Shown here in pieces: positions 4,950-63,429 of a stretch of DNA of 64,000 nt (positions within the stretch are counted from its first letter, which is position 1; each line of letters opens with the position of its first letter). The notes beneath the pieces were generated by a model. It was given only the letters and a program-made list of their open reading frames with translations, did not search any database and had not been told where the DNA came from. A program made the position numbers and the translations under genes. The DNA is from Leptonemataceae bacterium (lineage in GTDB: Bacteria > Spirochaetota > Leptospiria > Leptospirales > Leptonemataceae): NCBI GenBank assembly GCA_965227295.1, contig OZ245742.1, positions 4,864,001 through 4,928,000 of the forward strand, given 5' to 3'.

Positions 4950-5145
4950 GTGTTACCTCCGCACCGTCACTTAAGCCGATTCAACTACAAACCGGCACTA
5001 AGCTATTATTATGACGATTTTTTAGTTAATAGTACCGAAAATAAAGAAAATAATTTCCTTTTTTCGACACTTAAGGCGGAAGTTAGTCGAGCCTCATACT
5101 CGCAGAGATCTGAAATAGTACGAAAGCACTAGAAGGTCACGAGCA

Positions 5146-5508
5146 TCAATCCCCGACTTTTGCCAGGACACTTTTGACGGGGGCGGGAATCGGCGCCGGC
5201 TGATGAAATTCAACGCCGACCAGATAGGCGTCCTGCTTGCCGACGGTCCCCATGCTCTGCCAGGCAACCCGTGCCACAAAGTGCATCTTTTCCTCAAGGT
5301 CCTTGCCGAGGAGGACACCTTCGATGTCGGCCCCGATTTCCGTGTGAAGGACAGCGCCTTTACTTACGGGAACCACAGCACAAAGGCCGGTCTCGGAGAT
5401 ATCACCGAGCATGGCGAAGAATTCTTCACCGGCAATGTTTAAGTTCAGTTCCAGCTTGAACTTGTTCAGGGCGTTGGCATAAACGCGCGGGCTTCGCATG
5501 CGTAACAT
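5146..5508 (-). CDS. Stand-alone PilZ-domain protein (~120 aa)
   Basis: GGAGG RBS before ATG at 5508; RMRSPR (imperfect RxxxR), DISETG (D/NxSxxG), VAW, GVEF. Confidence 0.8.
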   Translation of the reverse strand: MLRMRSPRVYANALNKFKLELNLNIAGEEFFAMLGDISETGLCAVVPVSKGAVLHTEIGADIEGVLLGKDLEEKMHFVARVAWQSMGTVGKQDAYLVGVEFHQPAPIPAPVKSVLAKVGD

Positions 5509-5598
5509 GGGGCACCTCCGGTCGCCATGGCGTCGGCCCCGACTTGAAAACGCCACAAAAAACTGGACTGGAATCCGGAATCCCATGATTCCGGATTC

Positions 5599-6393
5599 AT
5601 GCGCGTAAATCCCGACCGCTCCGCCTACATCGTCTTGGACTCCGTAGATTCTACCAATCAGTATCTTATGCAGGCGGGGGTTCCCTCCGGGACCGTCTGT
5701 GTGGCGCGAACGCAGACCGCGGGCCGGGGACGACGGGGGAGACACTGGCATGCGCGCCCCGGAACGGCCGTTCTCTTCTCCACACTGCTGGTGCTGGAAT
5801 CCGACGTGTACCGGAACCTCGGCCCTCGCGTCGTCTGGTTTCCGTTGCTGGCCGGTCTCGCGGTCCTAAGAGTCGCTGAGCGAATTCTTACGGAATCCAC
5901 ATCCGCACGCAAACCGGATCTCTGGTTGAAATGGCCGAACGACCTCTATGCTGTTCGCGACGGCGTTCCCGGCAAGGCTGCCGGCATTCTGGTGGAGTCT
6001 TCGATCGGAAAAACTGAGAGTATGCGAGTCGTGATCGGCGCGGGTATTAACTTCAGCGACGTTCCTGAGGACGTGCCGGATGCGACGGTGCCGCCGGCGG
6101 CTTTGCTTTCCGAAAGCAGGGCGGAACAGCAAGAACCTTTTGAAATCTTCGTACCGCTCTACATTGCCGAATTCAACGCGCGACTGAGCCAGCTCTCCGG
6201 CGACACAAAGGTACTCCCGGACTTTCTCCGGGAGATCCGCGCCAGGGATTACCTCCGGAATCGCCTGGTTCGCACTGGTGGAGAAACGTTTGCCGCACGC
6301 GGGATCTCCGACACCGGGCGGCTGATCCTGGAAAAAGACGGAGTGCGCACGGAAACGGATGACGCCCCGGATCTTGAGATCCTGCCGGACTAA
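5599..6393 (+). CDS. birA: Biotin-[acetyl-CoA-carboxylase] ligase (no HTH, monofunctional)
   Basis: VDSTN, QTAGRGRRGRHW, LKWPND, KAAGILVE, GAGIN. Confidence 0.93.
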   Translation: MRVNPDRSAYIVLDSVDSTNQYLMQAGVPSGTVCVARTQTAGRGRRGRHWHARPGTAVLFSTLLVLESDVYRNLGPRVVWFPLLAGLAVLRVAERILTESTSARKPDLWLKWPNDLYAVRDGVPGKAAGILVESSIGKTESMRVVIGAGINFSDVPEDVPDATVPPAALLSESRAEQQEPFEIFVPLYIAEFNARLSQLSGDTKVLPDFLREIRARDYLRNRLVRTGGETFAARGISDTGRLILEKDGVRTETDDAPDLEILPD

Positions 6394-6399
6394 TAGATA

Positions 6400-9300
6400 C
6401 TACGAGCCGGGATCGTCGGCACCAAAGGCCAGCTGATGTGAGTGTATGGCCTGCTCCATGCCTTTCACGACGGACGCCCGCAATTCTGTGACATCACTGA
6501 TGCCGATGTCCAACAGACCGGATTCCTGCGCATCATGGTCGGCGCGGGACTTTCGATTGAAGTCTTCCATAAACTTCCGGTGATTCTCACGAGCGCCGTC
6601 CTCGTCCCCGTTTGCAAGAAGTTCACCATGCTTGCGACCTTCAAAAAGGTCGTATGCGGCCTGTCCGCCCATCACAGCAACCAGTGAGGAATTCAAGGCG
6701 ACATACGCAATGCCCGGTCGCAGAAACTTACTGAACGCATGAATCTGCCGTCCGCCATAGTTCTGATGGAGGACCACAGACACCACAGGAACGCGCCCCA
6801 GGATATTTACATCCAGCGACTCGGCACCAATAGCCTGAATACGCAAACGCTCCTGCCGCGTCCCGGGTACGAAGCCCGGGGCATTCGAAAGCATCACCAC
6901 CGGTAGCCCGCGGCGGTTCACCAGCTCCATGAACACACGGAACTTCTCGGTACCGGGTGCATCCGGGGCTCCTCCCATGATCTGCGGCTGATCCGCGAGT
7001 ATCGCCACCACGCGACCGTCGAGTCGGCCGAGGCCGGTTACCAACGCCGGCCCCGCCGCAGGGTCATTCATCTCCCGGTACATTTCAATGAAACTGCCGT
7101 TGTCGCAAATCGCTTCGATCACCGAACCAACGATGTCGTAGGCTTGATTGACCTCGACCGGAATGTTCGCCGGACCGGCCGGTCCGACAGGAGACCGACT
7201 TCCCAGGGGAGAAAGCAGGGCAATCAGGTTCTGAGCGTAGTCAAAAGCTCCGGCAAAAGACGAGGCGATAAATGCGGCGTACTGCCTTACGGCCTGGAGC
7301 TGTTCTCGCGTTTCGTTACCGGAGCGAACATACACCAGTGCATCCGCAGATGCATTCAGCTCCACGCGATGCAAGCCGTCGGGATGCGTCAGAATATTAA
7401 TGTGCACGCCGCGCGTATCGCGCAGAGTGTTCAGAAAATCCATGCGCGCTCTGAGCCCGGCACGATCCTCGAAGCGGTCCGGAGGGCCCATTTCCTGAAA
7501 CCAACGGCGACCGAATATTAAGATTCGCGCCGACTTTGTACGAGCGGCGATCTTCAACAACTCCCGCGCCCTGATTGCCGTGGCACTGGAGCGCACACCA
7601 AAACGACTGCGAGTTCCCAGTAAGAGCGTTCGTCGGCCTCCCAGGCGGGCAAAACCCCCGACCACCGCGCCGGCAGCGAAGTACTCATCCTTAAGAGACC
7701 AGAAATCGCCATCATCAACGTTTTGCTGGAGAATGCGCTCGTTGACGACAGATCGGCCGCGCAGGGCCGTGCGGGTATAAACCTCATCCGATTCCGCGGC
7801 GCCTCCCTTGCGCTCGATTCGATCGCGTTCCCGTTCAGCACCGAACAGGCGGTGAATGCGCCGGACGATGGCGATTAAATGTATCTTGTCTCGTGCAATG
7901 AAATCCGCAATGCCGGTCCACTTGCCCATGATCTTCGCGCCGCCGATTTCGTAGTTCGTCAGATCTTCTCCCGTGACTGAGCGAATGACGTTGGAACCGG
8001 TGAGGACGCGATACGATTCCGGTGAGTCCAGCAGTACCTGCAAGGTAGCCTGACTTGATCCGTAGACATCCAGGCCGGCGGAAGAGCCGATCCCCACTGC
8101 TACGGTGAAAAGCGGAGGCCGGTCCTCTGCGATGAACTCCGGAAATTGAAATTGCCGGCCAATTTCCGCGAGCATGTTCCGCAACGTTTCGTCGGCATTG
8201 CGCTCGGTATAACGCGCGAAAGTCTCCGCGTCCACGTTCTCGGCCAACAGAGTATTCATCATGAATCCCTGCGCCGCGCGATTCAGGGAGATGACTCCTT
8301 CACGAATGTTCGCTCCGGCCCCGTCGTTCCAGACGTAAAGAGGTCGTCCCAGGCGATACGCGATGTAGGCCGCCGCAACGTATTTCAGTCCCTCAAGATT
8401 TCCGGTGGCGCCGCCGCGCACGCGACTGTCTTTCATAAAGAAGATTGCCGGCAGGCCATCGATCTGGCCTTCAAAGATTGAGGCGCCCACGACCAGCCTC
8501 TGCTTCGCGCCGGTCTCAGGATTCACGACCTGCTGGTCGTCAATCGAAGGGACCAGGATCTCCTGCACGGAATCCACATCGTCGAAGCACTCGCGAACCC
8601 AGAAATCAATGGGCCATTTGTCCCGGGCTAACATTCGCTCAACCCGTGGGTCCTCGGGCGCAGGTAACCCGGAGTAGGGATTGCGAAAATCCACATCCAG
8701 AAGATGAAAACGGATCGTCTCGCCGTCCCCATGAAAACCAATCATGCGTCGGGAGTAGGTCCCGCTGGCCCGGGCGTGTACATCCAGGTGCAGGATGCTC
8801 GCCTCAATCTGAGTAATTTTCAGGAAGGGAAAATGCTCCGTAAGCTCACGATTCAGCTCCCAGTAATCAAAATCGCCACCGAAGCCGCTGAAGTCGAAGC
8901 GGGAATCGCCGACGTGCGTTAGAATCTCGACGCGATGACCGTTTTCTCTGGGAATTTCCAGGGGTGGATTCTTGGCGATAAAGCGGGCCGCAAAGAGTAC
9001 CTGCACCGCATCCATAATCGCTTTCCAGATCCGTCGGGCGAAGGGGGTTTCTGCGCCCTGCTCGGAAGCCGCGTCCACAGCCGCAAAGGAAACCAGGCGA
9101 CGATCGTCCCCATTCGCCAGAACGTAGAGATAGACGGTCTCCAGAGGCGAATAGAGCCGGCGGACCCGAGAAGATTGCTTCAGAAATTTTAACTTACTCT
9201 CCAGTTCACTTTGTACCCAGGCCGGCGCTTCCGACGGGATCAACTCGCCCGTCTCGTCCGACTCCAGGGATTCACTGAATCCCGTAACGAGAGACATGAC

Positions 9301-52056: not shown

Positions 52057-52674
52057 TTGAGTCTCGTCGAACACATCGCCCAACTGCGCACGGAAGTCAT
52101 TCGCATGGCCAGAAAGGCCGAAGCCATCTATGCGGAGTCCATTCGCTGCCTGAAAAACCCCGACGACAAACTTGTCGCCGAGGTCCGACGATTGGACGCG
52201 GACCTCGATGAGTTCGAGCTGTATCTGGATCGCCTGTGCGTGCAGGTCCTCGCGTTGCAGGAACCCTACGCCGTCGACTTTCGCTTCGTCTTCAGTGTCG
52301 TAAAGGTCATCAAGGACCTCGAACGCGTCGGGGATCAGTCCAAGACCATCGCCAAGTGGTCGCTCAAGCTGCCGGGCGGACCGGACGCCGATATGCTGTC
52401 GTTGGCCGATAAGGCCGGCGAGGCCCTCCAGACCGCGGTGCAGGCCCTCGTCGGCGACGACCGCGCCCTGGCGGACCGCGTCATGGAAATCGAATTCACC
52501 GTCGACGAAATCGAGGACCGCATCATCGAAAGCGCCACGTCCATCGCCGAAGCGTTCATCGCCAAGGCCATCGAACGCATCGGCGACCTGGCGACGAACG
52601 TTGCGGAGAACGTCATCTTCACGGTGGACGCTCACGATGTTCGCCACGGCCATTTTCACGAATCCCCCCGGTAA
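52057..52674 (+). CDS. phoU: Phosphate signalling complex protein PhoU
   Basis: QEPYAVDFR, DLERVGD, ERIGDLATNVAE; GAGG RBS before TTG. Confidence 0.92.
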   Translation: MSLVEHIAQLRTEVIRMARKAEAIYAESIRCLKNPDDKLVAEVRRLDADLDEFELYLDRLCVQVLALQEPYAVDFRFVFSVVKVIKDLERVGDQSKTIAKWSLKLPGGPDADMLSLADKAGEALQTAVQALVGDDRALADRVMEIEFTVDEIEDRIIESATSIAEAFIAKAIERIGDLATNVAENVIFTVDAHDVRHGHFHESPR

Positions 52675-52685
52675 ACCGTAGAAAA

Positions 52686-54368
52686 TCAAAACGTCAGTTG
52701 CGCTCGAATGAACACCTGACGTGTATCGATGCGGGAGCCGACGAAATCATTCAGCACGAGCGTCTCGTTCGGACCGTAACCGAAGGCCCCCTTCACGGCG
52801 CTGTTCCCCTCCAGTTGTTCGGCGATGGTATCGCCGGTGGGCGTGGACGCTCCGCTGCCGTCGAAACGTTCGAAGACGTTCGTTCGGTACTCGCGGCCGG
52901 TCTGATCGCGCCCGCGCAACTCACTGACGCCGAGGGATATGCGAAAGTACTCGCCCGTTGCCGACGGGAAGAACGTCACACCGTAGATGGTGTTGAAGTA
53001 ACGCCCTTCGCCGTGATCGATGTTCGCGTCGGCCGAAGCGAGACTCAGGTTGCCGAACTGGTTGTCCGCCGCATCCAGCGCCAGCGCCTGTCCGATCCAG
53101 GGAGTGCCGTCCACCGGAGCGATGCGTGAGGACAGACGATCCGTCGAAGTGCCGGCGATCACTCTACCGAAAACGCCGATGTAGCGCCAGCGCGCGTGTG
53201 CGTAGACGTAATTGGCCCAACCGATCGCGTCCCGGTCTTCCGAACGACTGACGCTATCGCTGACCGTACCGGTGCCGCCGGAGCTGAGATTGTAGGTCGT
53301 TACGGCGCCGCGCCTGTCGAGATGCGTTACGTTCCCGACGCCGAGCGTAAATGTAAACTCACCTGAGGTTACGCTGACATCGGTCTCGACCCCGTAGTGC
53401 AGATCGCGCTTAGCCCGCGTATCGCCCTCCATGTAGACGAACTCGAAAGTATTCGGAGCGCCGCTTACGTCGGCCGTAAGATAGCGGCTCTCGTCATCCG
53501 AGATGCCGTGCACGTTGTGCACGCGCAGCGGAAAATTCACGGACCAGTGCAAGGTCCGATTCTTACCGGTGGGCACAATGGAGAGCAGGCTGTAGAAATC
53601 GAGGGCATAGCTGTCGCCGGCTCCGGTGGCCAGGTCTTCCTCGTCGGTGTTCGCCAGTTCTTCGGCGTTCGTGTGATGATAGCCCTCGCCGTTGCCGAGG
53701 AGGACGTGAAACGCCACGTAGTCACTGCCGAAGATGTACGCCAGCCCCGCGTCGGCGGAACTGGACATGCCGACCTTATCAGTGGGGGCCCGGTCCACGT
53801 AGCGATGGCCCCAGTACTTCTGCAACGAGACGCCACCCTGGGCGTCCACCGTCGGCGTATGCTGGAGTCCCAGCCGCAAATAGTGTTTTCCGAAGTTGCC
53901 GTTCAACACCGGTACGGGCATTTGCACAAAGCCGTACTTGAGTCCGACGGCGTAGTCGTTGTCTTCGCTGCACGACGAACCGCAGCCGTCGCCGAGTTCG
54001 GCGCTGCGGGCAATGTCCGTCGTGATGCGGAAGCCCCAGCCGGCATACTCGCCGTCCTTCACGGCGCCGCGGAAGTTGAGATAGGCACGCCCCATGCGGA
54101 AGCCGGCATTTTCGGAGGTCGGCCCGTTCTCGTCCGGCCGATCCACGGCGTCGTAGTCGTTCAACTCGTATCCGGTGAAAAGGAGGCCGTCGATCTTGAA
54201 ACTGTAGTCGGGAAGATCGGAGACTTTGCGAGCCGGCTTTTCGTCACTCGCGGCCGGTTTGTCCTGGTCCACCGCGGGGGGCCCATCATCCTGAGCGAAG
54301 AGAGTCGTCGTATGAAAGAGAAGCGCGAGCAGCGGCACAACCCGGAACTCTCGCAAGAAATCGGTCAT
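52686..54368 (-). CDS. Putative outer-membrane beta-barrel/porin, possibly phosphate-related
   Basis: Signal peptide (LFA/Q), GFRMGRAYLNF and FRITTD beta-strand patterns, C-terminal FIRAQLTF (terminal Phe); AGGAG RBS; adjacent to pst/phoU. Confidence 0.6.
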   Translation of the reverse strand: MTDFLREFRVVPLLALLFHTTTLFAQDDGPPAVDQDKPAASDEKPARKVSDLPDYSFKIDGLLFTGYELNDYDAVDRPDENGPTSENAGFRMGRAYLNFRGAVKDGEYAGWGFRITTDIARSAELGDGCGSSCSEDNDYAVGLKYGFVQMPVPVLNGNFGKHYLRLGLQHTPTVDAQGGVSLQKYWGHRYVDRAPTDKVGMSSSADAGLAYIFGSDYVAFHVLLGNGEGYHHTNAEELANTDEEDLATGAGDSYALDFYSLLSIVPTGKNRTLHWSVNFPLRVHNVHGISDDESRYLTADVSGAPNTFEFVYMEGDTRAKRDLHYGVETDVSVTSGEFTFTLGVGNVTHLDRRGAVTTYNLSSGGTGTVSDSVSRSEDRDAIGWANYVYAHARWRYIGVFGRVIAGTSTDRLSSRIAPVDGTPWIGQALALDAADNQFGNLSLASADANIDHGEGRYFNTIYGVTFFPSATGEYFRISLGVSELRGRDQTGREYRTNVFERFDGSGASTPTGDTIAEQLEGNSAVKGAFGYGPNETLVLNDFVGSRIDTRQVFIRAQLTF

Positions 54369-54973: not shown

Positions 54974-55375
54974 TTACTGGTACGGGGCACTTGTCAGGAT
55001 CGAATACTTGCAAATGTCGAAGGAAAAGCCCGGAAGAAAAGTCCCGTCTTCAAAGCGTTCGTGGACGACATAGTTACCCTGAAAGTTGGCGATATCCGAA
55101 GTAATGGAGAGCCGGTCTGGATCTTGACAATCCGCCACGGACCACGGACCGCCAGGCTTTCCCACCTCGTATGAGAGAATTTCGGACTGATAGATACATC
55201 CAATTCCCTGCCAGCTCAAACCCGCGATCGTATGCGTCGTCGGTCCGTCACAACGATAATTCGGTGAGGGAGGATTGCACGTGATCGTTACGTGCATGTC
55301 CGGACAGACTTGCGCGGAAACCGCGGCCGGAATCAGCAAGGCCGCAGCAGCCACAGTAGCTAATAAGAATCTCAT
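54974..55375 (-). CDS. Hypothetical secreted protein with 6 Cys
   Basis: AAGGAG RBS; signal peptide MRFLLATVAAAALLIPAAVSA/Q; 6 Cys in the mature part. Confidence 0.75.
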   Translation of the reverse strand: MRFLLATVAAAALLIPAAVSAQVCPDMHVTITCNPPSPNYRCDGPTTHTIAGLSWQGIGCIYQSEILSYEVGKPGGPWSVADCQDPDRLSITSDIANFQGNYVVHERFEDGTFLPGFSFDICKYSILTSAPYQ

Positions 55376-55542: not shown

Positions 55543-56619
55543 TTATTGAGGTCTTGATCCACTTCCGACGGGCGACGCGCTGAAGCGATCGGCGGCCGTG
55601 TTTGCACGTACGCAGAACGGAATGTCCTCGTGCATGTCGCGGTGTTTTTCCGAAGGACGCAGGAGCCCGCCGTCCCGGCAATCTTCGCGATAACGGCAGC
55701 CCGAGCAGCCTGCATCGTCCGCGGAAGTAGCGCCGGCGTACTCCGCCGATTCGTGGACCTCCCGCAGGCGACCGGGTTCGTAGCGCGTAAAGTGCGCGCG
55801 GTTCGAATGCGCCGGGCAGATGTTGCCGTTGTGCAATACGGCCAGGCGTCCCGGTCGAATGAGCGGCGGAGACCAGACCCATTCCAGTCCCATGCGGTCG
55901 GCCAGAACACCGGCCAGGGGATTGTCCAGGAAGCGGATGGGATACAATCTTCCTAGAAATCCCGCAAGGCGCACGAGCGAAACAAACTCCTCCGGTGATA
56001 GAAGATCCCGGCTGACGTCGTAGTAATCGTTTTCGACGCGATGCAGTTGCACCAGGGTCAGGCACGTGAGCTGCGGAAATCGTTGAAAGACATCGCGAAT
56101 GAATTCCGGCATAACGGCGAGCAACGGTCGATGCACGGTCGTAAAGATCTCCACTTCCCAGCCGTGATCCAGGGCGGCCTGTATGCCGCGTATCGTGGGG
56201 GCGTAACTGCCGTCGCCGCGCGAAGCCTCGTGGATTTTTTCCGGGCCGTTCAGGCTCACGGTACACGCAATGCGACCGGCGTACTTTTCGAAACGCTGAA
56301 ACATGCGCTCCGTAAACAACATGGCGTTCGTATTAAAGAAGACGTACTCGTAGCCGTTTTCCAGGGCGTATTCCACGAGATCGCCGAAGGGTTTCCAGAG
56401 CGTCGGTTCGCCGCCGCTGAGATGCAACACCCGGTACCCCAGTTCCCGGCCTTCGTCGACGATGGAACGCGCCATTTCGAACGGCATGCCGGTTTTCTCG
56501 GGCAAATCCGCCAGGGCAAAACAATACGGGCAGTCCAGGTTGCATTTCGTGGTGACCTCGAGGGTGAGGGATTCCCTGGCCGCGGCCTGGCGGATGGATT
56601 CGGTGTACGTCGCGTTCAA
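55543..56619 (-). CDS. Radical SAM protein with SPASM/twitch-like C-terminus
   Basis: CNLDCPYC, LSGGEP, SLNG...H...RG, C-terminal ICP...CSGCRYREDC...FC; TTG start overlaps the upstream stop. Confidence 0.9.
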   Translation of the reverse strand: MNATYTESIRQAAARESLTLEVTTKCNLDCPYCFALADLPEKTGMPFEMARSIVDEGRELGYRVLHLSGGEPTLWKPFGDLVEYALENGYEYVFFNTNAMLFTERMFQRFEKYAGRIACTVSLNGPEKIHEASRGDGSYAPTIRGIQAALDHGWEVEIFTTVHRPLLAVMPEFIRDVFQRFPQLTCLTLVQLHRVENDYYDVSRDLLSPEEFVSLVRLAGFLGRLYPIRFLDNPLAGVLADRMGLEWVWSPPLIRPGRLAVLHNGNICPAHSNRAHFTRYEPGRLREVHESAEYAGATSADDAGCSGCRYREDCRDGGLLRPSEKHRDMHEDIPFCVRANTAADRFSASPVGSGSRPQ

Positions 56620-57638
56620 TGTTCTACTCCCTGAATGTTTGTGAGATTATGTTTGTGATCGGCCTGAAATTGCATAAGCGGCGCGCATAGATTGTCCAGG
56701 TCCGCCGCGAGGCCGGGACAGGCGTCCGGTACGACCCGGCGGACACGCCGCAACGTTTCCAGAGCGAGGTCCACGGCACGTTCCAGTACGCCTTCGCGCC
56801 GGAGCGCCTGCTCCAGTTCGCGCAGCCTCGCCGTCTCGGTCGCCACCGCGTCGAAACACCCGGCCGATTCCGGAGACAGCAGGTAGTACACGGCCGAACG
56901 ATGACCGGCCACGGCATCGTCCTGCCAATCCCGCAGATCATCCACGAGACGCCACGCCGTTGAGACCGCGGCAATCAAATCAAACCAGAACGAAGTCCCG
57001 GGCGCCGACTCAGGCGGAAACAAATCGCGCGTGTGCAGCGCGAGCAACGCCGGCGCCGCGGACCAGATGTGCATTTCCCGACGCGAACGTTCCAGATACG
57101 CATCGAGATCCCCGACGGCCTCGGGGTGATGCAGGCTTTCGAAGTAAAGATCGATGGCAGAGCGGACGGGATCGCGCTCGGCTTCCGCGAGATTCCGGGA
57201 GAGTTCTTCGATGTGCCGCGCGAAACGATTCCAGACGGCGGTGCGAAGTTGCAGCAGTAAGATACTCGGCGCCGTTTGCCCGTCGATGATGTGATCGTCC
57301 ATGAGATGCAGCAAAAAGGACATGGCCTGCGCCGTCAGCGCGGAGCGGTACAGGCCCGCGTGGGATGCCGCCGACGTAACTTCCGGACCGGCGGCGTCCA
57401 GCACGGACCACAGCGGCACGGGAAACTCCGCGCAAAAATCGTAGGCTTCCCCGGGTCGCAGTCCCCCGGCCATGAGCACCATGGTTCCCGGCACGCGCAG
57501 GCTCTCGGGCAGATCCCGGCAGACTTCCAGGATTTCCCGGTTCAGATTCCGGTACAACGTTCCGTGTTCATCGGAACATCTGGCGCCGAAATCCTCAAGC
57601 GGAGCGGTATTCAGGAGATTGTCATGGAGATTCGCCAC
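56616..57638 (-). CDS. Class I isoprenoid synthase-fold protein (ComQ-like prenyltransferase/terpene synthase-like)
   Basis: Two Asp-rich motifs, LMDDHIID and LVDDLRDWQDD, in a helical, Leu/Ala-rich protein; GTG start. Confidence 0.7.
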   Translation of the reverse strand: MANLHDNLLNTAPLEDFGARCSDEHGTLYRNLNREILEVCRDLPESLRVPGTMVLMAGGLRPGEAYDFCAEFPVPLWSVLDAAGPEVTSAASHAGLYRSALTAQAMSFLLHLMDDHIIDGQTAPSILLLQLRTAVWNRFARHIEELSRNLAEAERDPVRSAIDLYFESLHHPEAVGDLDAYLERSRREMHIWSAAPALLALHTRDLFPPESAPGTSFWFDLIAAVSTAWRLVDDLRDWQDDAVAGHRSAVYYLLSPESAGCFDAVATETARLRELEQALRREGVLERAVDLALETLRRVRRVVPDACPGLAADLDNLCAPLMQFQADHKHNLTNIQGVEH

Positions 57639-57763
57639 ACGCTACCCGGGAAACGACTCATATGACGCCCTAACTGCTTTTCCGTCAATCGTAAGAAATT
57701 GCAGCGCCGGCTTAACCTGCATTAGAAAATATGTAAGGCGAAAGGATTAGTTCACGCAGTAAG

Positions 57764-57796
57764 ATTGAAATTCTGTCTCCTGAATAAAATTTCAAT
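57764..57796. promoter_or_regulatory. Inverted repeat ATTGAAATT-N15-AATTTCAAT in the divergent promoter
   Basis: Perfect 9-bp arms at 57764-57772 and 57788-57796 in an AT-rich intergenic region. Confidence 0.45.
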
Positions 57797-57874
57797 TGCG
57801 AGATTCTCTCCGGGTAATGAATGTTAATGAATTTTAAAGGATTCGCCCCGGCGGGTCCCATTTCGGAGAAACAC

Positions 57875-58078
57875 ATGGATATAATCGAGTTCGCTGCCAA
57901 ATGCGTGGACGACGAGGGCCTCGGGAAAGGCTTCGTAGAGTCTCTCAAGGATGGTACGGTGGAAAGCTACCTCAGTAAAAACGGGGTCAGTGCATCCGCA
58001 CAGGAAATCCAACAGCTCAAAGCCAATGCCGATACGCTCGCAAAGATCGGAGAAGGCAACGCTGTGCGGGGCTACTGA
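57875..58078 (+). CDS. 67-aa peptide, candidate Nif11-like RiPP/pheromone precursor ending in RGY
   Basis: GGAG RBS; MDIIEFAAKCVDDEGLGKGFVESLKDGTVESYLSKNGVSASAQEIQQLKANADTLAKIGEGNAVRGY; followed by a strong hairpin. Confidence 0.7.
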   Translation: MDIIEFAAKCVDDEGLGKGFVESLKDGTVESYLSKNGVSASAQEIQQLKANADTLAKIGEGNAVRGY

Positions 58079-58086
58079 AACTCCTG

Positions 58087-58106
58087 GGGCCGCCCTCGGG
58101 CGGCCC
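58087..58106 (+). other. GC-rich stem-loop after the peptide gene
   Basis: GGGCCGCCC-TC-GGGCGGCCC, with no U-tract directly after it. Confidence 0.6.
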
Positions 58107-58158
58107 GAAGCATTCCTTCCATATATAAACACAAAAATCAACGGCCCGAGTTTTCTTT

Positions 58159-61100
58159 ATGCGAATTGTTACATGGTCCTGTCTGTTGTTACTCTCTTTC
58201 ACGCTCAGCAGCAGCGGATTGGGAGCCCAGGAGGCGATCCTGAGCATCGACACGACGGACACGCTGCACGAAATCGCGGGACAGTGCTCCTTCGCCGTCG
58301 ACGATAATCCGGCATACGCGGCGAAGGATTTTGACGCCTCGGGCTGGCCCACAATTCCCTGCAACAAACCGTGGGTTCTCACCCCGGATTTCGCCGACGT
58401 ACAGGGACCCGTCTGGTATCGCGTCGCCATCGATATCCCGAACCCCGAAGCCGTACGGAACCCGGCGCTGTTCCTGCCGCTCCAGTACCGCGGCATCCGC
58501 CTGTATCTGAACGGCCGGCAAATCCGCGAAACGCGCCCGCACAACGAAGCCGGAGAAACCCCGCTCCTTCCGGGAAAACCGGAGATCGTTCCGCTTCAAC
58601 TGGATCAGTTGGATGCGGGCCGCAACGTCATCGCCATTCGTACCGAGGCGCTGTCTTACTGGGGCGGTCTGGACGGCAGCATGTTCTTCGGTCCCGCCGC
58701 CCAACTGGAGAACCGCTGGATGTCGCGCATGATTCGTTACGCCGGCCTGGCCTTCGTCTCCATGTTCGTTGGTCTGTACTTCTTTCTGTTTTTTCTGCAA
58801 CGCCGCGAAGAAGTCTACACGCTCTTCATGGCCCTTACGTCCTTCGCGCTGGGCTCCTGGATCCTCGGCTACCGCGGACTCATTTTTTTCCTGGTGGACC
58901 AGTACTGGCTCTACCTGGCACTAACCTTTGCCGGTGCGATTCTAACGAACGCCTTCGTTATTCGTTTTATTCACTCGTTCTTCGGCATGCGTCAGGGCAT
59001 TTTCGCGCTTTCACTCGAGTTTACGTCCTACGCTCTCGTCGCCGCCCTGGTCATTGAATTCCTGGCCACCGGCCTCATTCGGTTCTTCACACAGTTTCTC
59101 TTTCTCGCGTTCATGGGCATCTCGCTTTTGATCGCCGTCTACCTGCTGATTATTTGCATTCGCGCCGCCCTGGCGCGCAAAACGTTCGGCCGGCGCATCC
59201 TCTTCGGATTTTTGCTCTACACCCTCGCCCTCACCTACAGCATGCAGGACTTCCTGGACATCGCCAAGGTGGAACCGGTACTCAGCGAAGGTTTCTTCGC
59301 CATGATCGTGGTTTTCTCGACCGTGCTGGCTTCGCGCTTCTCGTCCATGCACCGCGAACTGGAGCGCGCCCACGAGGACCTGCTCGCCCTGGATCGCATT
59401 AAGGACGACTTCCTCGCGAACACATCGCATGAACTGCGCACTCCGCTGAACGGCATCATCGGCGTGGCCGAGTCGCTGCTCGCCGGGGCGGCGGGAACAC
59501 CCTCGGATGCCATGCGCATGAACCTCAGCCTCATCGCGAGGAGCGGTCGCCGGCTCGCCTCGCTCGTGGACGACATCCTGGATTTCTCGCGTCTGAAGAA
59601 CCGCGACCTGCGCATCAATCCCGTTTCCGTGGATGTGCATCCGGCCACGGAGCTGGTATTCGCCCTCATGCGACCGCTCGCCGAAACAAAGGGCCTGGTC
59701 CTGGAAAACCATGTCCCGCAGTCCGCGCCACCGGTCCTGGTGGACGAAAACCGTCTGCAACAGGTGCTCATGAACCTCGTCGGCAACGCGATCAAGTTTA
59801 CCGAACAGGGACAGGTGGCCGTGTATGCCCGCGAGATCGGTGGGCCCGAGGCCGCCGCCCTGGAAATCGAGGTGCGGGACACGGGCATCGGCATCGACGA
59901 GAAAGATATGGAAGGTGTCTTTCGTCCGTTCGAACAGGCCTCGGGAACCGCGGCGCGGGAGTACGGCGGCGCCGGACTGGGACTCAGCATCAGCCGTCAG
60001 CTCGTCGAACTGCACGGCGGAACGGTGCGCGTCGAATCAATTCCTGGAGAAGGATCGCACTTTTTCTTTACGCTGCCGGTGGCGTTGCAGGCCCCGGCCG
60101 TGAAGGAGACGGAGCGCCTCGTCGCCGCCGGACTTCATCACGACAATGCGGAGTCGAGCGTAAGCACTCCGGCGAACGTTATGCACCCGACCAACGGCTA
60201 CCGCATCCTGGCCGTGGACGATGAGCCGGTCAACCTCCAGGTATTGCATAACTCGCTGAGCGTCGCGGGCTTTCAGGTCACCTCCGCCGTGGACGGTCGC
60301 CAGGCCCTGGAGGTCATCGAACGCGACGGAGCCCCGGATCTGTTGTTGTTGGATGTGATGATGCCGAAGATGAGCGGCTACGAGGTGTGCCGCGTGCTCC
60401 GGGAACGTCATTCCCTTTCCGAACTTCCGATTCTCATGCTGACCGCGAGGAATCGCATTCAGGATCTCGTCACCGGTTTTGAGGTCGGCGCCAACGACTA
60501 CGTGGCGAAACCCTTCGATCAAAAAGAACTGCTGGCGCGGGTCACCACGCTGTTAACCTTAAAAGACGCCGTAGACTCACGCATGCGGTTGGTATCTTTG
60601 CAACAGGAACTGGCCATCGCCGAACGCCTGCAACTTTCGCTGCTGCCGGAAAACGCGCCGCAAAGCGACAGTGTGCGCGCGGCCATGCGTTATCAACCCA
60701 TGCAGAAGGTCGGCGGCGATTTCTACGATTTTCACCGCGGGGCGGACGGCGGCATCGGTTGCATCGTGGCGGATGTTTGCGGCCATGGAATTCCGGCCGC
60801 CTTGATCGCCTCGATGGTGAAACTTTCGTTCGCCGTACATTTCGGCTCCGCGGAGAAACCGGCCGAACTCCTGCAGGGCATGAACCGCATGCTCATCGAC
60901 ATGGTGGGCACGAACTTCGTATCCGCGGTCTACGCCTACGTGAGTCCGCAGGACGGCCGCGTGTCCCTGGTCAACGCCGGTCATCCGGCAACACTCATCC
61001 ATCGGCGCGCAACCGGCGAGATTCTTTCGCTGCGCCCCCGGGGCCTGCCCCTGGGATGTTTCGACGATATGAAGTTGCTGGTGGAATCGGTGGAGCTGAA

Positions 61101-61353
61101 TCCCGGAGATCGCATCCTGCTCTTTACGGACGGCGTCACCGAAACACCGAATCCCGAGGACGTCTGGTTCGGCGAAGGCCAGGTGGAGAGTTTCCTGAAA
61201 AGACACGCGGACACTGCCCTGGATGAGCTGCCGGATCGCCTGCTGGAACACGTCACCGGATATACCGGTAAAGACGGGGTACTCAAGGACGATCTTACGG
61301 TCATCGCCCTTGAGTACGACGGCGCGGTGCTGGACCGCGCCGCCGCAAGTTGA
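58159..61353 (+). CDS. Hybrid sensor: extracellular jelly-roll domain - 7TM (7TM-DISM-like) - HisKA - HATPase - REC - SpoIIE/PP2C
   Basis: Signal peptide, WYR...LYLNG sugar-binding-like domain, about 7 TM helices, FLANTSHELRTPL, NLVGNAIKF, DTGIG, GLGL, VDDE...LLDVMMP...KPF, VGGDFYD, DVCGHG, FTDGV, DDLT. Confidence 0.9.
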   Translation: MRIVTWSCLLLLSFTLSSSGLGAQEAILSIDTTDTLHEIAGQCSFAVDDNPAYAAKDFDASGWPTIPCNKPWVLTPDFADVQGPVWYRVAIDIPNPEAVRNPALFLPLQYRGIRLYLNGRQIRETRPHNEAGETPLLPGKPEIVPLQLDQLDAGRNVIAIRTEALSYWGGLDGSMFFGPAAQLENRWMSRMIRYAGLAFVSMFVGLYFFLFFLQRREEVYTLFMALTSFALGSWILGYRGLIFFLVDQYWLYLALTFAGAILTNAFVIRFIHSFFGMRQGIFALSLEFTSYALVAALVIEFLATGLIRFFTQFLFLAFMGISLLIAVYLLIICIRAALARKTFGRRILFGFLLYTLALTYSMQDFLDIAKVEPVLSEGFFAMIVVFSTVLASRFSSMHRELERAHEDLLALDRIKDDFLANTSHELRTPLNGIIGVAESLLAGAAGTPSDAMRMNLSLIARSGRRLASLVDDILDFSRLKNRDLRINPVSVDVHPATELVFALMRPLAETKGLVLENHVPQSAPPVLVDENRLQQVLMNLVGNAIKFTEQGQVAVYAREIGGPEAAALEIEVRDTGIGIDEKDMEGVFRPFEQASGTAAREYGGAGLGLSISRQLVELHGGTVRVESIPGEGSHFFFTLPVALQAPAVKETERLVAAGLHHDNAESSVSTPANVMHPTNGYRILAVDDEPVNLQVLHNSLSVAGFQVTSAVDGRQALEVIERDGAPDLLLLDVMMPKMSGYEVCRVLRERHSLSELPILMLTARNRIQDLVTGFEVGANDYVAKPFDQKELLARVTTLLTLKDAVDSRMRLVSLQQELAIAERLQLSLLPENAPQSDSVRAAMRYQPMQKVGGDFYDFHRGADGGIGCIVADVCGHGIPAALIASMVKLSFAVHFGSAEKPAELLQGMNRMLIDMVGTNFVSAVYAYVSPQDGRVSLVNAGHPATLIHRRATGEILSLRPRGLPLGCFDDMKLLVESVELNPGDRILLFTDGVTETPNPEDVWFGEGQVESFLKRHADTALDELPDRLLEHVTGYTGKDGVLKDDLTVIALEYDGAVLDRAAAS

Positions 61354-63429
61354 TCAATAGACGTTGAAGGATCGAGACGAACCGCTGTAGCTGGAAATGT
61401 TCCCGGTCCAGCCGGACTTCCAGTGTCCCTGCTGCACGAAGCGGTACTCGCCGGACGCTGCGTCCGCGGGAATCTTCCATTCCACGGTTACCTTCGAGTT
61501 CGCCACGCCGCTGCGTTTCCAGATGTAACGCGTTTCCGGATCCCAGTCGTTGGCGATGGTCTGCCACGAACCGCCGACGCGGCGTTGCACCTTAAGGTAC
61601 GTTCCCTGGATTCTAAGGTTGTTCTTCGGATGCGCGCCCCAGAAGACGGCCTTCGCGGTCTGGCCGCGGCTGTAGGAACCCGCCGGCTGGGATTCCACAT
61701 CGCCGAAGTCTTTAAAGAGCGGCTTGTCGTCGAAGACCACGCCGGTTTGCAGGCTGATCTGCTCGTCTTTCAGATCGCGCGGAGTGGGGCCCGGCAGATT
61801 GTCGTTCCCGTTTACCAGGAAGTCGGCGAGCTTCGAGGTTTCCTGACGGAGGGCGTTTTCGGTCCACGGACCGAAGTGCGTCGACGCGCCCTCGTACTGC
61901 TGCTCGCTGTACTCTTCGCGGGTGGCGACGTAGCCGGCGTAGGCGTTCGCGAGGCCGACGATCACGGCGCGGGATACGCCGGTGTCTCCCAGCTTCGCGA
62001 GCACTTCTTCGCGCAGACGGCGACCGGCCATGGTCGTAATCTCGAACGGCACCGCGATCAACGCCAGGTCGCCGATGACACCGATCTGCACCGGCAGGAC
62101 CTCCGGCGTCCAGGGATACGGCGTAAATCGTCCCATGGGCAGCAGGATCACCTTTTCCCCGTGACAGGCCTGATCTTCCGGCACTAATGTAAACTGAGGC
62201 CAACTTACGCCGTCGTAAACGAGACCTTCGGGAATGAACTCGATGCCCGGCCCGTCCTCGGTGGAACCGGCGATCATCGATACACCGATGGCGGCGACAC
62301 AGGTGCGCCGGGAACCCACGCCGGTGAAGTCCGGCTGAATGGTTAGATCGGAGAAGTCGATGTACTTGTGACGATAGTCCACGCCGCCGACCAGATTCTG
62401 GCTGGCGCCGTTGTAGAGCTCAAGGGCTTTGTCGTACTGGCGGCGGGCGATGATCTCGTTGCGCGGATAATCGTTTACGTTGTCCGGCACGCCCCAGAGA
62501 TTTGGCGAAACGTCGCCCTCGTTGGCGTTCGCGAACGAGGCCACGAAGGTATCCGCGGCGCCGTAGTTCGTGCCCTTCGCCTCTTCGAAGAGGTACGAGG
62601 CCAGACCCTTGTTGTCGCCGGAGATCAGCTTGTTCTTGTTGCCGATGTTCGTCGCATGCACGGCGAACCAGGAGATCATGCCGCGCTCCTGGCCGCCGCG
62701 GCTTAACTTCAACACGGTCATGTCTTTGTCCGTGTCGTGTTGGTACTGCATGCGTTCGTGGGCGGGGTTCGCGTTGTAGGCGACGATGGAACGGTTGAAC
62801 GAGGCATCGAGTAACTCGCCGTCGTTGATCTTGATTTCACCGGCACCGACGTTGTTATGCGCACGCACGATGCTTTCGTAGATGCCGTCGACGATGGCGT
62901 TGTAGTTCTGCGAGTCGAAGCCGAAGCTCGTTAAGTTGTAGAGCGCGTAGTGCGAGTAAGCGCCGGGACCGCTGTGGGTATGCGTGGCGCTGATCATCAC
63001 GTTTTCGTCGGTGTAGAGCGAGCCGTAGGTTTGTTTGAGTTTTTTTACGACGCCCTGCTTCACGGACTGGAAGATCTGTCCGAGATCGGCGCTTACAAAA
63101 ACCAGGCGTTTGCCGTTGCAGGCCGTGCCGATGACGTAGGCGCGCGAACGCAGACGCATGTGAATGCCCTCGGTCTTTTGATCGACGGAGGCGTAGCCCA
63201 TCATGCCCAGCTCCGCGGCCGGACCGGTGATGTCGTAGATGCCGGTACCGATATCGAAGGTGGTGTTGTTGGTGCAGCCCTCGGGCGCGGTGGTCGGCGT
63301 GGTTACCGGCGGTGGTACAACGACGGGTGCGTCGTCGTCACAGAACGTGAGTGTGAGCGGTAAGATGAGCGCCAGCGCAACGGCCGCGCGCTTCGTCCGC
63401 CCGCCGGGCGTACGGATTGAGTGAAACAT
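61354..63429 (-). CDS. Neutral/alkaline ceramidase, lipoprotein
   Basis: DITGPAAE-GMMGYA, SATHTHSGPG, WFAVH, GDVSPN, EITTMAGRR, YEGASTHFGP; lipobox-like LTLTFC. Confidence 0.92.
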   Translation of the reverse strand: MFHSIRTPGGRTKRAAVALALILPLTLTFCDDDAPVVVPPPVTTPTTAPEGCTNNTTFDIGTGIYDITGPAAELGMMGYASVDQKTEGIHMRLRSRAYVIGTACNGKRLVFVSADLGQIFQSVKQGVVKKLKQTYGSLYTDENVMISATHTHSGPGAYSHYALYNLTSFGFDSQNYNAIVDGIYESIVRAHNNVGAGEIKINDGELLDASFNRSIVAYNANPAHERMQYQHDTDKDMTVLKLSRGGQERGMISWFAVHATNIGNKNKLISGDNKGLASYLFEEAKGTNYGAADTFVASFANANEGDVSPNLWGVPDNVNDYPRNEIIARRQYDKALELYNGASQNLVGGVDYRHKYIDFSDLTIQPDFTGVGSRRTCVAAIGVSMIAGSTEDGPGIEFIPEGLVYDGVSWPQFTLVPEDQACHGEKVILLPMGRFTPYPWTPEVLPVQIGVIGDLALIAVPFEITTMAGRRLREEVLAKLGDTGVSRAVIVGLANAYAGYVATREEYSEQQYEGASTHFGPWTENALRQETSKLADFLVNGNDNLPGPTPRDLKDEQISLQTGVVFDDKPLFKDFGDVESQPAGSYSRGQTAKAVFWGAHPKNNLRIQGTYLKVQRRVGGSWQTIANDWDPETRYIWKRSGVANSKVTVEWKIPADAASGEYRFVQQGHWKSGWTGNISSYSGSSRSFNVY

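Follow-up and report, generated by a model that had tools for sequence, protein, structure and literature searches.

A four-gene locus of spirochaetes proposed as a tyrosine-directed relative of lipid-tagged peptide signalling systems

What is made by a pair of enzyme genes that diverges from a small peptide gene and a sensor gene in a leptospiral spirochaete, and does the sensor read it? The question arose from a preliminary description of 64,000 nucleotides of Leptonemataceae bacterium DNA (assembly GCA_965227295.1, contig OZ245742.1, positions 4,864,001 to 4,928,000 of the forward strand; hereafter the window), and was addressed by computational comparison. The four-gene set was confirmed at positions 55543-61353 of the window: a radical SAM gene, a gene for a 340-aa enzyme, a 67-aa peptide gene and a sensor gene. 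The suggestion that the host was a probable spirochaete fits the names (Leptospiraceae or Leptospira) given by the sources to homologues from relatives of the same order. No published description of this gene set was found in the literature searched. We consider it moderately probable that the locus is a module of the PalQ/PalX/PalP or ComQXP kind, in which the 340-aa enzyme prenylates the terminal Tyr of the peptide, an oxidative enzyme tailors the product and the adjacent sensor reads it.

The 340-aa enzyme gene (56616-57638) and the radical SAM gene (55543-56619, 358 aa) are both on the minus strand. The TTG start of the radical SAM gene overlaps the TGA stop of the 340-aa enzyme gene and is preceded by GGAG at a distance of 7 nt, and the two genes are therefore translationally coupled; the description of a DDxxD-type isoprenoid-synthase-fold gene coupled to a radical SAM gene was borne out by this overlap, by the motifs and by the modelled fold. 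On the plus strand, the 67-aa precursor peptide gene (57875-58078; ATG at 57875, stop at 58078, GGAG 7 nt upstream) is followed by the gene for a hybrid sensor of 1064 aa (58159-61353). The enzyme and peptide-sensor operons diverge from an intergenic region (57639-57874) in which both promoters presumably lie; its GC content drops to 0.50, and no sigma-70-like site was found there. A GC-rich hairpin separates the peptide and sensor genes (58087-58106, plus strand): its stem consists of 8 bp of GC, and a 50-nt stretch folds at -23 kcal/mol (z -3.0; 1 of 200 shuffles as stable). The 67-aa form of the peptide gene, with its own ribosome-binding site and 3' hairpin and divergent from the enzyme pair, had been correctly described. 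The hairpin was considered as a canonical intrinsic terminator and rejected, because no U run follows it; it is also absent from the terminator scan. It is probably an attenuator or an mRNA stabiliser that permits some read-through transcription.

Two intact Asp-rich motifs, DDHIID and DDLRDWQDD, are present in the 340-aa enzyme and correspond to the family patterns H-x-x-D-D-H-x-x-D-G and A-W-R-x-x-D-D-x-x-D-x-x-x-D. Both motifs are invariant across 80 diverged sequences (23-44% identity), in which the invariant residues are D115, H116, D119, Y165, R230, D233, D234 and D241. The enzyme could not be assigned by sequence as a ComQ or a polyprenyl synthase: no Pfam or NCBIfam model matched at E<=0.1, Pfam polyprenyl_synt included, and the best match of the family profile to PDB sequences had an E value of 0.0056. 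The AlphaFold model (pLDDT 91.7) was searched with Foldseek, and the top PDB matches were polyprenyl (trans-prenyl) diphosphate synthases (TM 0.6-0.7); the predicted fold is that of a class I isoprenoid synthase (trans-IDS), and the gene is treated here as that of a candidate peptide prenyltransferase. HMMER retrieved 200 relatives at E<=1e-3. Five of the 13 long relatives are fusions with a radical SAM protein, and fusions with FAD domains also exist. One automatic cluster name in the Atlas is 'Terpene synthase'.

The neighbouring enzyme had been called radical SAM/SPASM-like. The first part of this name was upheld by the Pfam Radical_SAM match (E 5.4e-22) and by the CxxxCxxC cluster motif (C26, C30, C33), which is invariant in 39 orthologues. 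The second part was not: the full SPASM domain (PF13186, seven-Cys motif) gave no Pfam match, and of the invariant C-terminal residues of the 39 orthologues (H271, S272, C305, C308, C314, C336) four are Cys, enough, to judge from the sequence, for one auxiliary cluster. The C-terminal domain is best regarded as SPASM-like but reduced, because the profile aligns with anSME over the whole length (23-343). Profile searches against solved chains gave SkfB (1.1e-21), the decarboxylase BlsE (1e-16) and PqqE (2e-11), and the best NCBIfam matches were far below their cut-offs (TIGR03962, MftC, 57.8 bits against 265; PqqE model, 44.6 bits against 381). No PqqD family match was obtained at the N-terminus, and since the core begins at about residue 20-21 there is no room for an RRE (PqqD-like) domain. 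The radical SAM enzyme was found at 35 of 45 loci within the phylum and at 58 of 78 cross-phylum loci; where it is absent, a FAD_binding_4, FAD_binding_3, GMC oxidoreductase or P450 protein is usually encoded beside the 340-aa enzyme or fused to it. The radical SAM enzyme is thus an exchangeable, not a fixed, partner of the 340-aa enzyme and the peptide.

The window peptide ends in AVRGY (KGY in relatives of the same genus) and contains no Trp. The terminal Tyr, Y67, had already been singled out as the possible target, and proved to be the most conserved residue of the family, nearly invariant in the alignment: the final residue is Tyr in 31 of 33 peptides, in 24 of 40, and in 50 of 51 in the cross-phylum set. 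The tail ahead of it is variable in sequence, but a basic residue and the length are kept. AlphaFold placed helices at residues 3-60 (pLDDT about 80) and gave the tail (61-67) a pLDDT below 50, a prediction consistent with a helical recognition domain and a short flexible tail. A strong ribosome-binding site precedes the peptide gene at nearly all loci. Pfam ComX (PF05952) matched none of 31 peptides and, in whole-genome searches, nothing at the peptide locus at E<=10; the NHLP leader family was not among the Pfam/NCBIfam matches of the 31 peptides, and neither Nif11 model (PF07862, TIGR03798) matched the window peptide. Across the family, Pfam Nif11 matched two of 31 spirochaete peptides (best E 0.089) and none of 30 from other phyla, and TIGR03798 matched one of the 31 (E 0.0014). 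The nearest Atlas clusters are Nif11 families (score 0.82, taken as a lead only), and a Gly-Gly cleavage motif is not conserved in the family alignment. Where the sources name these peptides at all, they are called 'hypothetical protein'.

The sensor begins with a signal or N-terminal transmembrane segment, an extracellular part (about 21-195) and a 7TM region (201-393), followed by HisKA (415-481), HATPase_c (529-642), a receiver (683-795) and a SpoIIE/PP2C phosphatase (863-1053). All of the domains from HisKA onwards were above the Pfam cut-offs, the 7TM region was below (7TMR-DISM_7TM, PF07695, 22.1 bits against 29), and no Pfam family was assigned to residues 1-214. The membrane hybrid kinase with an extracellular domain was therefore as first described, except that the C-terminal phosphatase had been omitted. 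Orthologues of the extracellular and 7TM part (E<=1e-30) were found in 46 of 401 genomes of the phylum, 43 of which also have the peptide, and in 26 of the 28 loci that hold both genes the peptide gene is directly upstream of the sensor gene on the same strand; the proposed tie between sensor and peptide is supported by this co-occurrence. The 67-aa peptide is cytoplasmic and the sensor domain extracellular, and the 45 loci of the phylum have no conserved export route.

The four-gene set is conserved and is not a chance neighbourhood. In the single sample of 401 phylum genomes, the enzyme was found in 61, the peptide in 57, the radical SAM enzyme in 44, the sensor orthologue in 46 and all four in 37, tallies that overstate independence because the counted genomes are related to one another. 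The system is not confined to spirochaetes, either: 78 enzyme loci were collected from about eight phyla, and in 48 of them the peptide is beside the enzyme. These loci, together with the 52 of 61 enzyme-positive genomes of the phylum in which the peptide family is present, answer the objection, anticipated in the preliminary description, that homologous enzymes might lack a conserved adjacent peptide. Outside spirochaetes the peptide gene is directly downstream of the enzyme gene or genes on the same strand, and it still adjoins the enzyme where no sensor is nearby (loci L012 and L035); at some spirochaete loci the peptide-sensor pair is 2.7-4 kb from the enzyme pair. Polyprenyl synthase and IspH genes are directly upstream at a Pseudonocardiales locus, and IspG and terpene synthase genes are nearby at a Streptomyces locus. 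In one genus (g23), the radical SAM enzyme occurs in three of 20 genomes, and each of these three also has a peptide ending in Tyr and a sensor orthologue; the other 17 keep the enzyme without radical SAM, and ten peptides there end in PSxLH or otherwise without Tyr. A terminal Tyr is therefore no strict requirement of the enzyme.

A Tyr-ended peptide with its enzymes and sensor in many spirochaetes, and the peptide-enzyme pair in other phyla, suggest a kind of signal, not yet described, that is related to the lipid-tagged peptides of Bacillus and Paenibacillus. We infer that the product of 57875-58078 would be the precursor, whose helical part would fold as a recognition domain and whose short free tail ends in Tyr. 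With its two Asp-rich motifs the 340-aa enzyme would bind a prenyl diphosphate and pass the prenyl group on to the C-terminal Tyr, and the radical SAM enzyme, replaced by a flavoenzyme or P450 in other lineages, would add an oxidative or radical modification on or beside that residue. The co-transcribed 7TM hybrid kinase may then read the modified peptide, or a fragment of it, and drive its own receiver and PP2C phosphatase output. The isoprenoid genes at the two actinobacterial loci, the exchange of oxidases, the four receptor types described below and the co-variation within g23 would all support such a scheme. An analogous signalling or RiPP system had been proposed from the window, and all the parts of that proposal open to comparison turned out as predicted. 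Several points count against the prenylation-and-sensing scheme, among them the g23 genomes described above: the peptide profile found no match at 30 of the 78 cross-phylum loci; no transporter or leader protease is conserved, the next commonest neighbour family being present at only 6 of 45 loci; and free terpene synthases, too, commonly have P450s and flavin oxidases as partners.

The analogy first drawn with ComQXP holds as to kind, but the PalQ/PalX/PalP system of Paenibacillus is the nearer precedent. In the part of PMC10853753 used here, the Paenibacillus alvei system likewise combines a kinase, a structured-leader precursor and an isoprenoid-superfamily enzyme unclassified by family models, and PalQ prenylates only a strictly C-terminal Trp of the precursor encoded beside the histidine kinase. 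PalX and the window peptide thus share a conserved aromatic residue at the very C-terminus, Trp in PalX and Tyr here. PalQ benefits from a Gly immediately ahead of its acceptor Trp (PMC13290415, passages on PalQ), and the window peptide likewise ends in Gly-Tyr; the spacing of the Asp motifs is also similar (111 residues in PalQ, D89 to D200, from the same part of PMC10853753; 118 here, D115 to D233). Two published observations weigh against a Tyr acceptor: according to the excerpted text of PMC13290415, isoprenoid-synthase-fold (trans-IDS-like) peptide prenylation is known from ComQ, from the P domain of ChrPC and from PalQ, all three of which act on Trp, and PalQ did not accept the other electron-rich residues that were tried at the C-terminus (PMC10853753, in part). 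The likeness to PalQ was drawn from its published description (the parts cited) and not from its sequence; the 78 enzyme loci include no Paenibacillus record. Unlike in the Pal system, no Pfam NHLP family is among the peptide matches (the Nif11 likeness is weak), a radical SAM enzyme or other oxidase regularly accompanies the module, the 7TM hybrid kinase proposed as sensor also carries receiver and PP2C domains, and the hosts are diderm bacteria of several phyla.

In the comQXPA gene order of Bacillus a membrane kinase gene (comP) adjoins the peptide gene, as it does in the window. ComQ/ComX and StheQ/StheX (Sphaerobacter) also resemble the present locus in that a trans-IPPS-fold enzyme is encoded beside a peptide of about 55-70 aa (bioRxiv 10.64898/2026.08.29.745113, in the portion cited here). 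StheX has 69 aa, ordered at 1-59 with a floppy tail, and the window peptide is predicted to share with ComX and StheX the combination of an ordered N-terminus and a floppy C-terminus, the latter with an aromatic acceptor; ComQ and StheQ modify a Trp located 2-3 residues from the end, a residue absent from the window peptide, and StheQ has a single metal site, its second motif being a pseudo-motif, whereas both motifs are intact here (same portion). Unlike in ComQXP, the peptide has no Pfam ComX match and the enzyme no Pfam polyprenyl_synt match. MftC (mycofactocin) and PqqE (PQQ) are radical SAM enzymes that act on peptide Tyr, which is C-terminal in MftA; the pairs MftA/MftC and PqqA/PqqE resemble the window in having a SPASM/twitch-group radical SAM enzyme beside a small peptide with Tyr as the likely site. 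They differ in that the MftC and PqqE models score below their cut-offs here, neither an RRE partner nor a peptidase nor any further gene of those pathways is conserved, and the constant partner is an isoprenoid-fold enzyme. Tyr in ribosomal peptides is prenylated by the cyanobactin ABBA-type Tyr O-prenyltransferases (PagF type), which have an ABBA barrel in place of the all-helical isoprenoid-synthase fold and belong to a pathway that lacks a kinase partner and any rule on the terminal residue; PirF is mentioned in the excerpted text of PMC13290415. Nif11-type precursors share a small helical N-terminal domain and a similar length and pattern, but HMM support is marginal and there is no conserved Gly-Gly motif or peptidase-transporter here.

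In a different account the peptide would be a disposable scaffold (as in mycofactocin, PQQ and pearlins), and a prenylated, oxidised, lipophilic small molecule derived from its C-terminal Tyr would be released by a housekeeping peptidase as cue or cofactor. MftA ends in Val-Tyr, and modification here would likewise fall on the final residue. Scores of the radical SAM enzyme against the MftC and PqqE models (far below cut-offs) and against the radical SAM decarboxylase BlsE lean the same way, a membrane-permeant small product would account for the lack of a conserved exporter or dedicated protease, and peptidases are encoded near some Desulfobacterota loci (Peptidase_C25 in L144 and L148, an S33/S9-type hydrolase in L132). 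We nevertheless judge a scaffold unlikely: the tail before the Tyr is variable yet keeps its basic residue and length, the tie of peptide gene to receptor gene (26 of 28 loci) is typical of peptide cues, the MftC score of 57.8 bits is well short of 265, and no MftB-like partner was found in the loci.

More doubtful still is the idea of the 340-aa protein as a free terpene or polyprenyl synthase whose terpenoid product is tailored by the radical SAM enzyme or oxidase, while the small protein is no substrate but assists or regulates the sensor or the enzymes. The near-invariant C-terminal Tyr (50 of 51 cross-phylum peptides) would then be unexplained, as would the peptide directly after the enzyme genes at loci without a 7TM or PP2C sensor match and the co-variation of Tyr, radical SAM and sensor within one genus. 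In its favour are a fold and motifs like those of enzymes acting on free prenyl diphosphates, the automatic cluster name, the presence of P450 and flavin oxidases (classic terpenoid tailoring partners), the persistence of enzyme and peptide N-domain after Tyr loss in g23, and the 2.7-4 kb between the two gene pairs at some spirochaete loci. We find it equally improbable that the 340-aa protein transfers no prenyl group and instead docks the leader for an oxidative enzyme without RRE, or carries out another peptide reaction, the sole covalent change being radical or oxidative and on the Tyr. A radical SAM core that starts at about residue 20, without room for an RRE, would suit such a role, as would the coupling or fusion of the two proteins and the constancy of the 340-aa protein and peptide beside a variable oxidase; but the two Asp motifs for metal binding do not vary across 80 diverged sequences (23-44% identity), which is unexpected for a mere docking protein, and isoprenoid-precursor genes are found beside two actinobacterial loci.

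If prenylation of the terminal Tyr is the correct reading, the 340-aa enzyme would be the first Tyr-directed member of its enzyme group, and peptide lipidation would be extended by a new reaction, directed at Tyr and with a radical or oxidative step built in. A function would be gained for a family of about 200 cluster representatives unrecognised by Pfam and NCBIfam. We know of no peptide pheromone in spirochaetes; these bacteria, some Leptospira included, would gain a candidate self-produced signal with its receptor, and the locus would be a candidate for the first pheromone system based on a lipidated peptide among spirochaetes and other diderms. Only tentatively do we extend this to a widespread, unrecognised class of peptide signals, with a C-terminal Tyr that is lipidated by a new trans-IDS-like branch and then oxidised by one of several interchangeable enzymes (radical SAM, flavin or P450), the whole being wired to the lineage's own receptor. 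Four receptor types were found beside the module in different phyla (7TM kinase-PP2C, cyclase-AAA_16-TPR, dCache-cyclase and STK-GAF-HATPase); the 7TM kinase-PP2C type belongs to spirochaetes, cyclase-STAND-TPR to Desulfobacterota and dCache-cyclase to one Rhodoferax record. Because the receptor is exchanged repeatedly while the enzyme-peptide core stays constant, the signalling idea is open to direct testing.

The four genes claimed in the preliminary description, which read the interval 55543..61353 as a candidate prenylated RiPP or ComQXP-like peptide-pheromone system with a radical SAM enzyme, were all confirmed from the list of open reading frames and by Pfam. The radical SAM gene (55543-56619, minus strand, 358 aa; Pfam Radical_SAM, E 5.4e-22) lies downstream of the gene encoding the candidate peptide prenyltransferase (56616-57638, minus strand, 340 aa; hereafter, the enzyme). 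The TGA stop of the enzyme gene is overlapped by the TTG start of the radical SAM gene, with GGAG 7 nt ahead of the TTG. The peptide gene (ATG at 57875, end at 58078) has GGAG ahead of its start and encodes 67 residues, with the tail ...AVRGY. After it stands a hairpin with an 8-bp GC stem (58087-58106), and the 50-nt stretch containing this hairpin has a folding energy of -23 kcal/mol (z -3.0). Because no U run follows the stem, the hairpin was ruled out as an intrinsic terminator, and transcription is likely to read through into the sensor gene, which starts at 58159. The sensor (1064 aa) is composed of HisKA, HATPase_c, receiver and SpoIIE/PP2C phosphatase domains and a 7TM block (Pfam); this block was assigned to 7TMR-DISM_7TM with a score under the family cut-off, and the N-terminal extracellular part matched no Pfam family.

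In genome searches, the peptide, enzyme and radical SAM genes were each found in single copy in the source genome, at the window locus. A distant paralogue of the extracellular-7TM part of the sensor is encoded elsewhere in the same genome (G000:C1:2177270-2178379; E 2.5e-15, 20% identity), in an open frame of 1079 aa. On the sensor side, the locus is bordered by a gene for a 691-aa neutral/alkaline ceramidase (61354-63429, minus strand; Pfam Ceramidase_alk, E 1.6e-172, plus its C-terminal domain), which is convergent with the sensor gene, the two stops abutting. On the other side, a gap of 168 nt separates the radical SAM gene from a downstream gene (54974-55375, minus strand) whose 133-aa product has a start resembling a signal peptide, contains several Cys and belongs to no family; this gene is not conserved in the two same-genus loci compared. 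Beyond it, a gene for a 560-aa protein without a Pfam family (52686-54368, minus strand) adjoins a PhoU gene (52057-52674).

The gene order sensor - peptide - (divergent) - enzyme - radical SAM recurs in the two other genomes of the genus, where the peptide tail reads ...LKGY. Conservation was then assessed in 45 loci around enzyme homologues: the radical SAM gene was present in 35, a sensor of the same build in 35 and the peptide in 29, and in 26 of the 28 loci having both, the peptide gene was co-directional with the sensor gene and immediately upstream of it. When all neighbours of these 45 loci were clustered, no further gene family occurred in more than 6 loci, and this included transporters, proteases and RRE proteins. 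Genome counts refer to a single fixed set of 401 genomes from the phylum and, given the kinship among these genomes, are descriptive and carry no statistical test: enzyme 61, peptide 60 (57 strong matches), radical SAM orthologue 44 (E<=1e-40) and sensor extracellular-7TM orthologue 46 (E<=1e-30). The enzyme co-occurred with the peptide in 52 genomes and with the radical SAM protein in 42; radical SAM and peptide shared 40 genomes, sensor and peptide 43, and all four genes were found together in 37. The module is real and conserved, and its earlier reading is supported as far as the comparison reaches.

The enzyme matched no Pfam or NCBIfam family, and a word-indexed protein search returned the self-match alone; a full HMMER scan yielded 200 representatives at E<=1e-3. 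In an alignment of 80 of these 200 relatives, D115, H116, D119, Y165, R230, D233, D234 and D241 were invariant, and the two Asp-rich motifs of the family read DDHxxD and AWRxxDDxxDxxxD. The AlphaFold model of the enzyme (pLDDT 91.7) was best matched in the PDB by medium- and long-chain prenyl diphosphate synthases (TM 0.6-0.7, 12-17% identity), and the family profile matched prenyl diphosphate synthase sequences weakly (best E 0.0056). Among 13 long relatives scanned, five were fused to radical SAM, five to FAD_binding_4 and one to FAD_binding_3; the remaining two were a protein without a Pfam family and a TPR/CHAT protein, the latter probably a spurious match.

For the radical SAM protein, the closest solved chains by profile were SkfB, a radical SAM decarboxylase and PqqE, and one auxiliary cluster is predicted. 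All its NCBIfam matches were far under the family cut-offs, by which mycofactocin and PQQ membership were ruled out. A complex prediction of enzyme, radical SAM protein and peptide with alignments scored 0.27 (mark 0.32) and speaks neither for nor against binding. Two enzyme-gene copies lie close together in four loci: L045 (7001-9744), L051 (6992-10186), L140 (6217-8960) and L149 (6046-8987). In the first three, small unassigned ORFs lie in the interval of several kb that separates the radical SAM gene from the enzyme copies; in L149 this interval is about 0.8 kb.

Nearly all copies of the peptide gene are preceded by a GGAGG-type RBS. The peptide family has a conserved N-terminal part of about 55 residues (consensus MxxFIDF...L..WF...GY.VS..DC..LI.NK) and a variable tail of 8-15 residues, in which a basic residue often precedes the final Tyr by two to four positions. 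For the window peptide, five helices are predicted within residues 3-60 (pLDDT about 80), followed by a floppy tail (61-67). Nif11 membership was ruled out on HMM scores, with matches in 2 of 31 peptides for the Pfam model, in 1 of 31 for TIGR03798, and in 0 of 30 non-spirochaete peptides; the nearest Atlas likeness of the peptide to Nif11 leaders (score 0.82) is a lead only. ComX membership was also ruled out. Database twins of the peptide, from several Leptospira species, are named 'hypothetical protein'.

For a cross-phylum pattern scan, one genome per species was used, with a pattern derived from a 34-sequence subset of the enzyme alignment, and 78 loci were obtained. Their record names include cyanobacteria (Calothrix, Aetokthonos, Alkalinema), Telluribacter, many Desulfobacterota, Streptomyces, Pseudonocardiales, Planctomycetota, Firmicutes, Rhodoferax and Spirochaetota: the distribution of the module is wide and spans several phyla. 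A radical SAM orthologue was present in 58 of the 78 loci and the peptide in 48; 50 of 51 peptides of the cross-phylum loci end in Tyr. Desulfobacterota loci encode the enzyme, the radical SAM protein and the peptide, in that order, on a single strand. The loci of cyanobacteria, Telluribacter and actinobacteria have the peptide (...EQ[IV][NH]Y) directly after the enzyme, no radical SAM gene, and FAD_binding_4 or GMC oxidoreductase genes next. Other oxidative stand-ins were found in loci without radical SAM: a fused FAD_binding_3 domain (L035, peptide ...DDGY), an FAD_binding_4 gene immediately upstream of the enzyme (L071, L199, L200) and a P450 (L012, peptide ...NIAY). The families of these flavin and P450 enzymes commonly oxidise phenols.

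In a Pseudonocardiales locus (L186, 4646-6677), a polyprenyl synthase and IspH/LytB are encoded directly upstream of the module, and in a Streptomyces locus (L142, 4750-5910 and 11305-12342), IspG/GcpE and a family-2 terpene synthase are encoded nearby. Gene clusters whose pathways use up prenyl diphosphates commonly carry extra isoprenoid-precursor genes. A Trp-halogenase-like flavoenzyme is also encoded downstream of the module in L186. The receptor type varies: in five Desulfobacterota loci (L132, L144, L148, L152 and L181, about 4300-7960 in each), a Guanylate_cyc plus AAA_16 protein of 1171-1225 aa, which in three cases also contains TPR, is encoded immediately upstream of the enzyme operon; the Rhodoferax locus has a dCache-cyclase, plus an ABC exporter and an outer-membrane factor; the Aetokthonos locus has a Ser/Thr-kinase-GAF-HATPase protein. 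Two of the five Desulfobacterota loci (L132, L181) have cNMP-binding proteins ahead of the cyclase protein, and two (L144, L148) have Peptidase_C25 and B12-binding radical SAM genes after the operon.

The nearest precedent is the Pal cluster of Paenibacillus. As described in PMC10853753, this comprises the histidine kinase PalP, the precursor PalX with an NHLP leader and a conserved C-terminal Trp, and PalQ, an isoprenoid-superfamily enzyme earlier called a terpene synthase, which transfers C5-C15 groups onto Trp only, and only at the last residue. In ComQ/ComX and StheQ/StheX, according to bioRxiv 10.64898/2026.08.29.745113, the modified Trp stands two or three residues short of the C-terminus, and StheX has an ordered region (1-59) followed by a floppy tail. 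The trans-IDS-like peptide prenyltransferases named in the accessible sections of a 2026 review (PMC13290415) are ComQ, the ChrPC P domain and PalQ, all acting on Trp. The present family differs from the known systems in acceptor residue and leader type, in having both Asp motifs intact, in its regular oxidative partner, and in its hosts and receptors. Sequence tests for ComQ, ComX, Nif11, SPASM and MftC all failed. The family belongs to none of these groups, yet probably works like ComQ and ComX. A literature search, thin on subscription journals, found no published account of a system that pairs a Tyr-ended peptide with both an isoprenoid-fold enzyme and a radical SAM protein.

Given the observed folds, motifs, gene coupling, co-occurrence and terminal Tyr, we infer a model that covers prenyl donor and acceptor site, the radical reaction, sensing, and export or trimming. 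If the enzyme behaves as PalQ and ComQ do, the helical domain of the peptide would be bound and the free C-terminal Tyr would enter the active site, where a prenyl diphosphate would be ionised on Asp-bound metals and the phenol alkylated on oxygen or a ring carbon. The coupled radical SAM protein would then act at or near the C-terminal Tyr; candidate reactions are cross-linking and a decarboxylation that begins with abstraction of a hydrogen from the benzylic carbon. The product, whole or trimmed, would serve as the cue for the co-transcribed sensor, whose kinase would phosphorylate its own receiver and thereby switch the PP2C output.

Variation within one genus of the phylum (g23, database twins named Leptospira spp.) bears on this model. 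The enzyme was present in all 20 sampled genomes and the radical SAM gene in 3; in the same three genomes the peptide ends in Tyr (...NVRSY, ...VKAGY) and the sensor orthologue is present, which ties Tyr, radical SAM and sensor together. Ten further peptides were read from the other g23 genomes: eight share another conserved tail, ...PSxLH, and the others end in ...NTNLL and ...HKKKD. These Tyr-less loci (L011, 7812-9496; L078, 6451-7915; L087-L096) retain enzyme and peptide and have a shorter 7TM-PP2C sensor nearby; radical SAM, HisKA and receiver are absent. This shows that the enzyme and the peptide N-domain can persist without the Tyr, which the proposed model does not explain.

A second peptide class (L116-L122, e.g. 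G292:C1:47112-48924) has only the N-terminal domain in common with the first, with tails reading ...AIPFLFLT[R/Q/H] or ...MWAY / ...MAGY. In the four genomes for which coordinates were compared, its genes adjoin shorter (~510-800 aa) paralogues of the sensor extracellular-7TM part, and some genomes have two second-class peptide genes about 4.3 kb apart.
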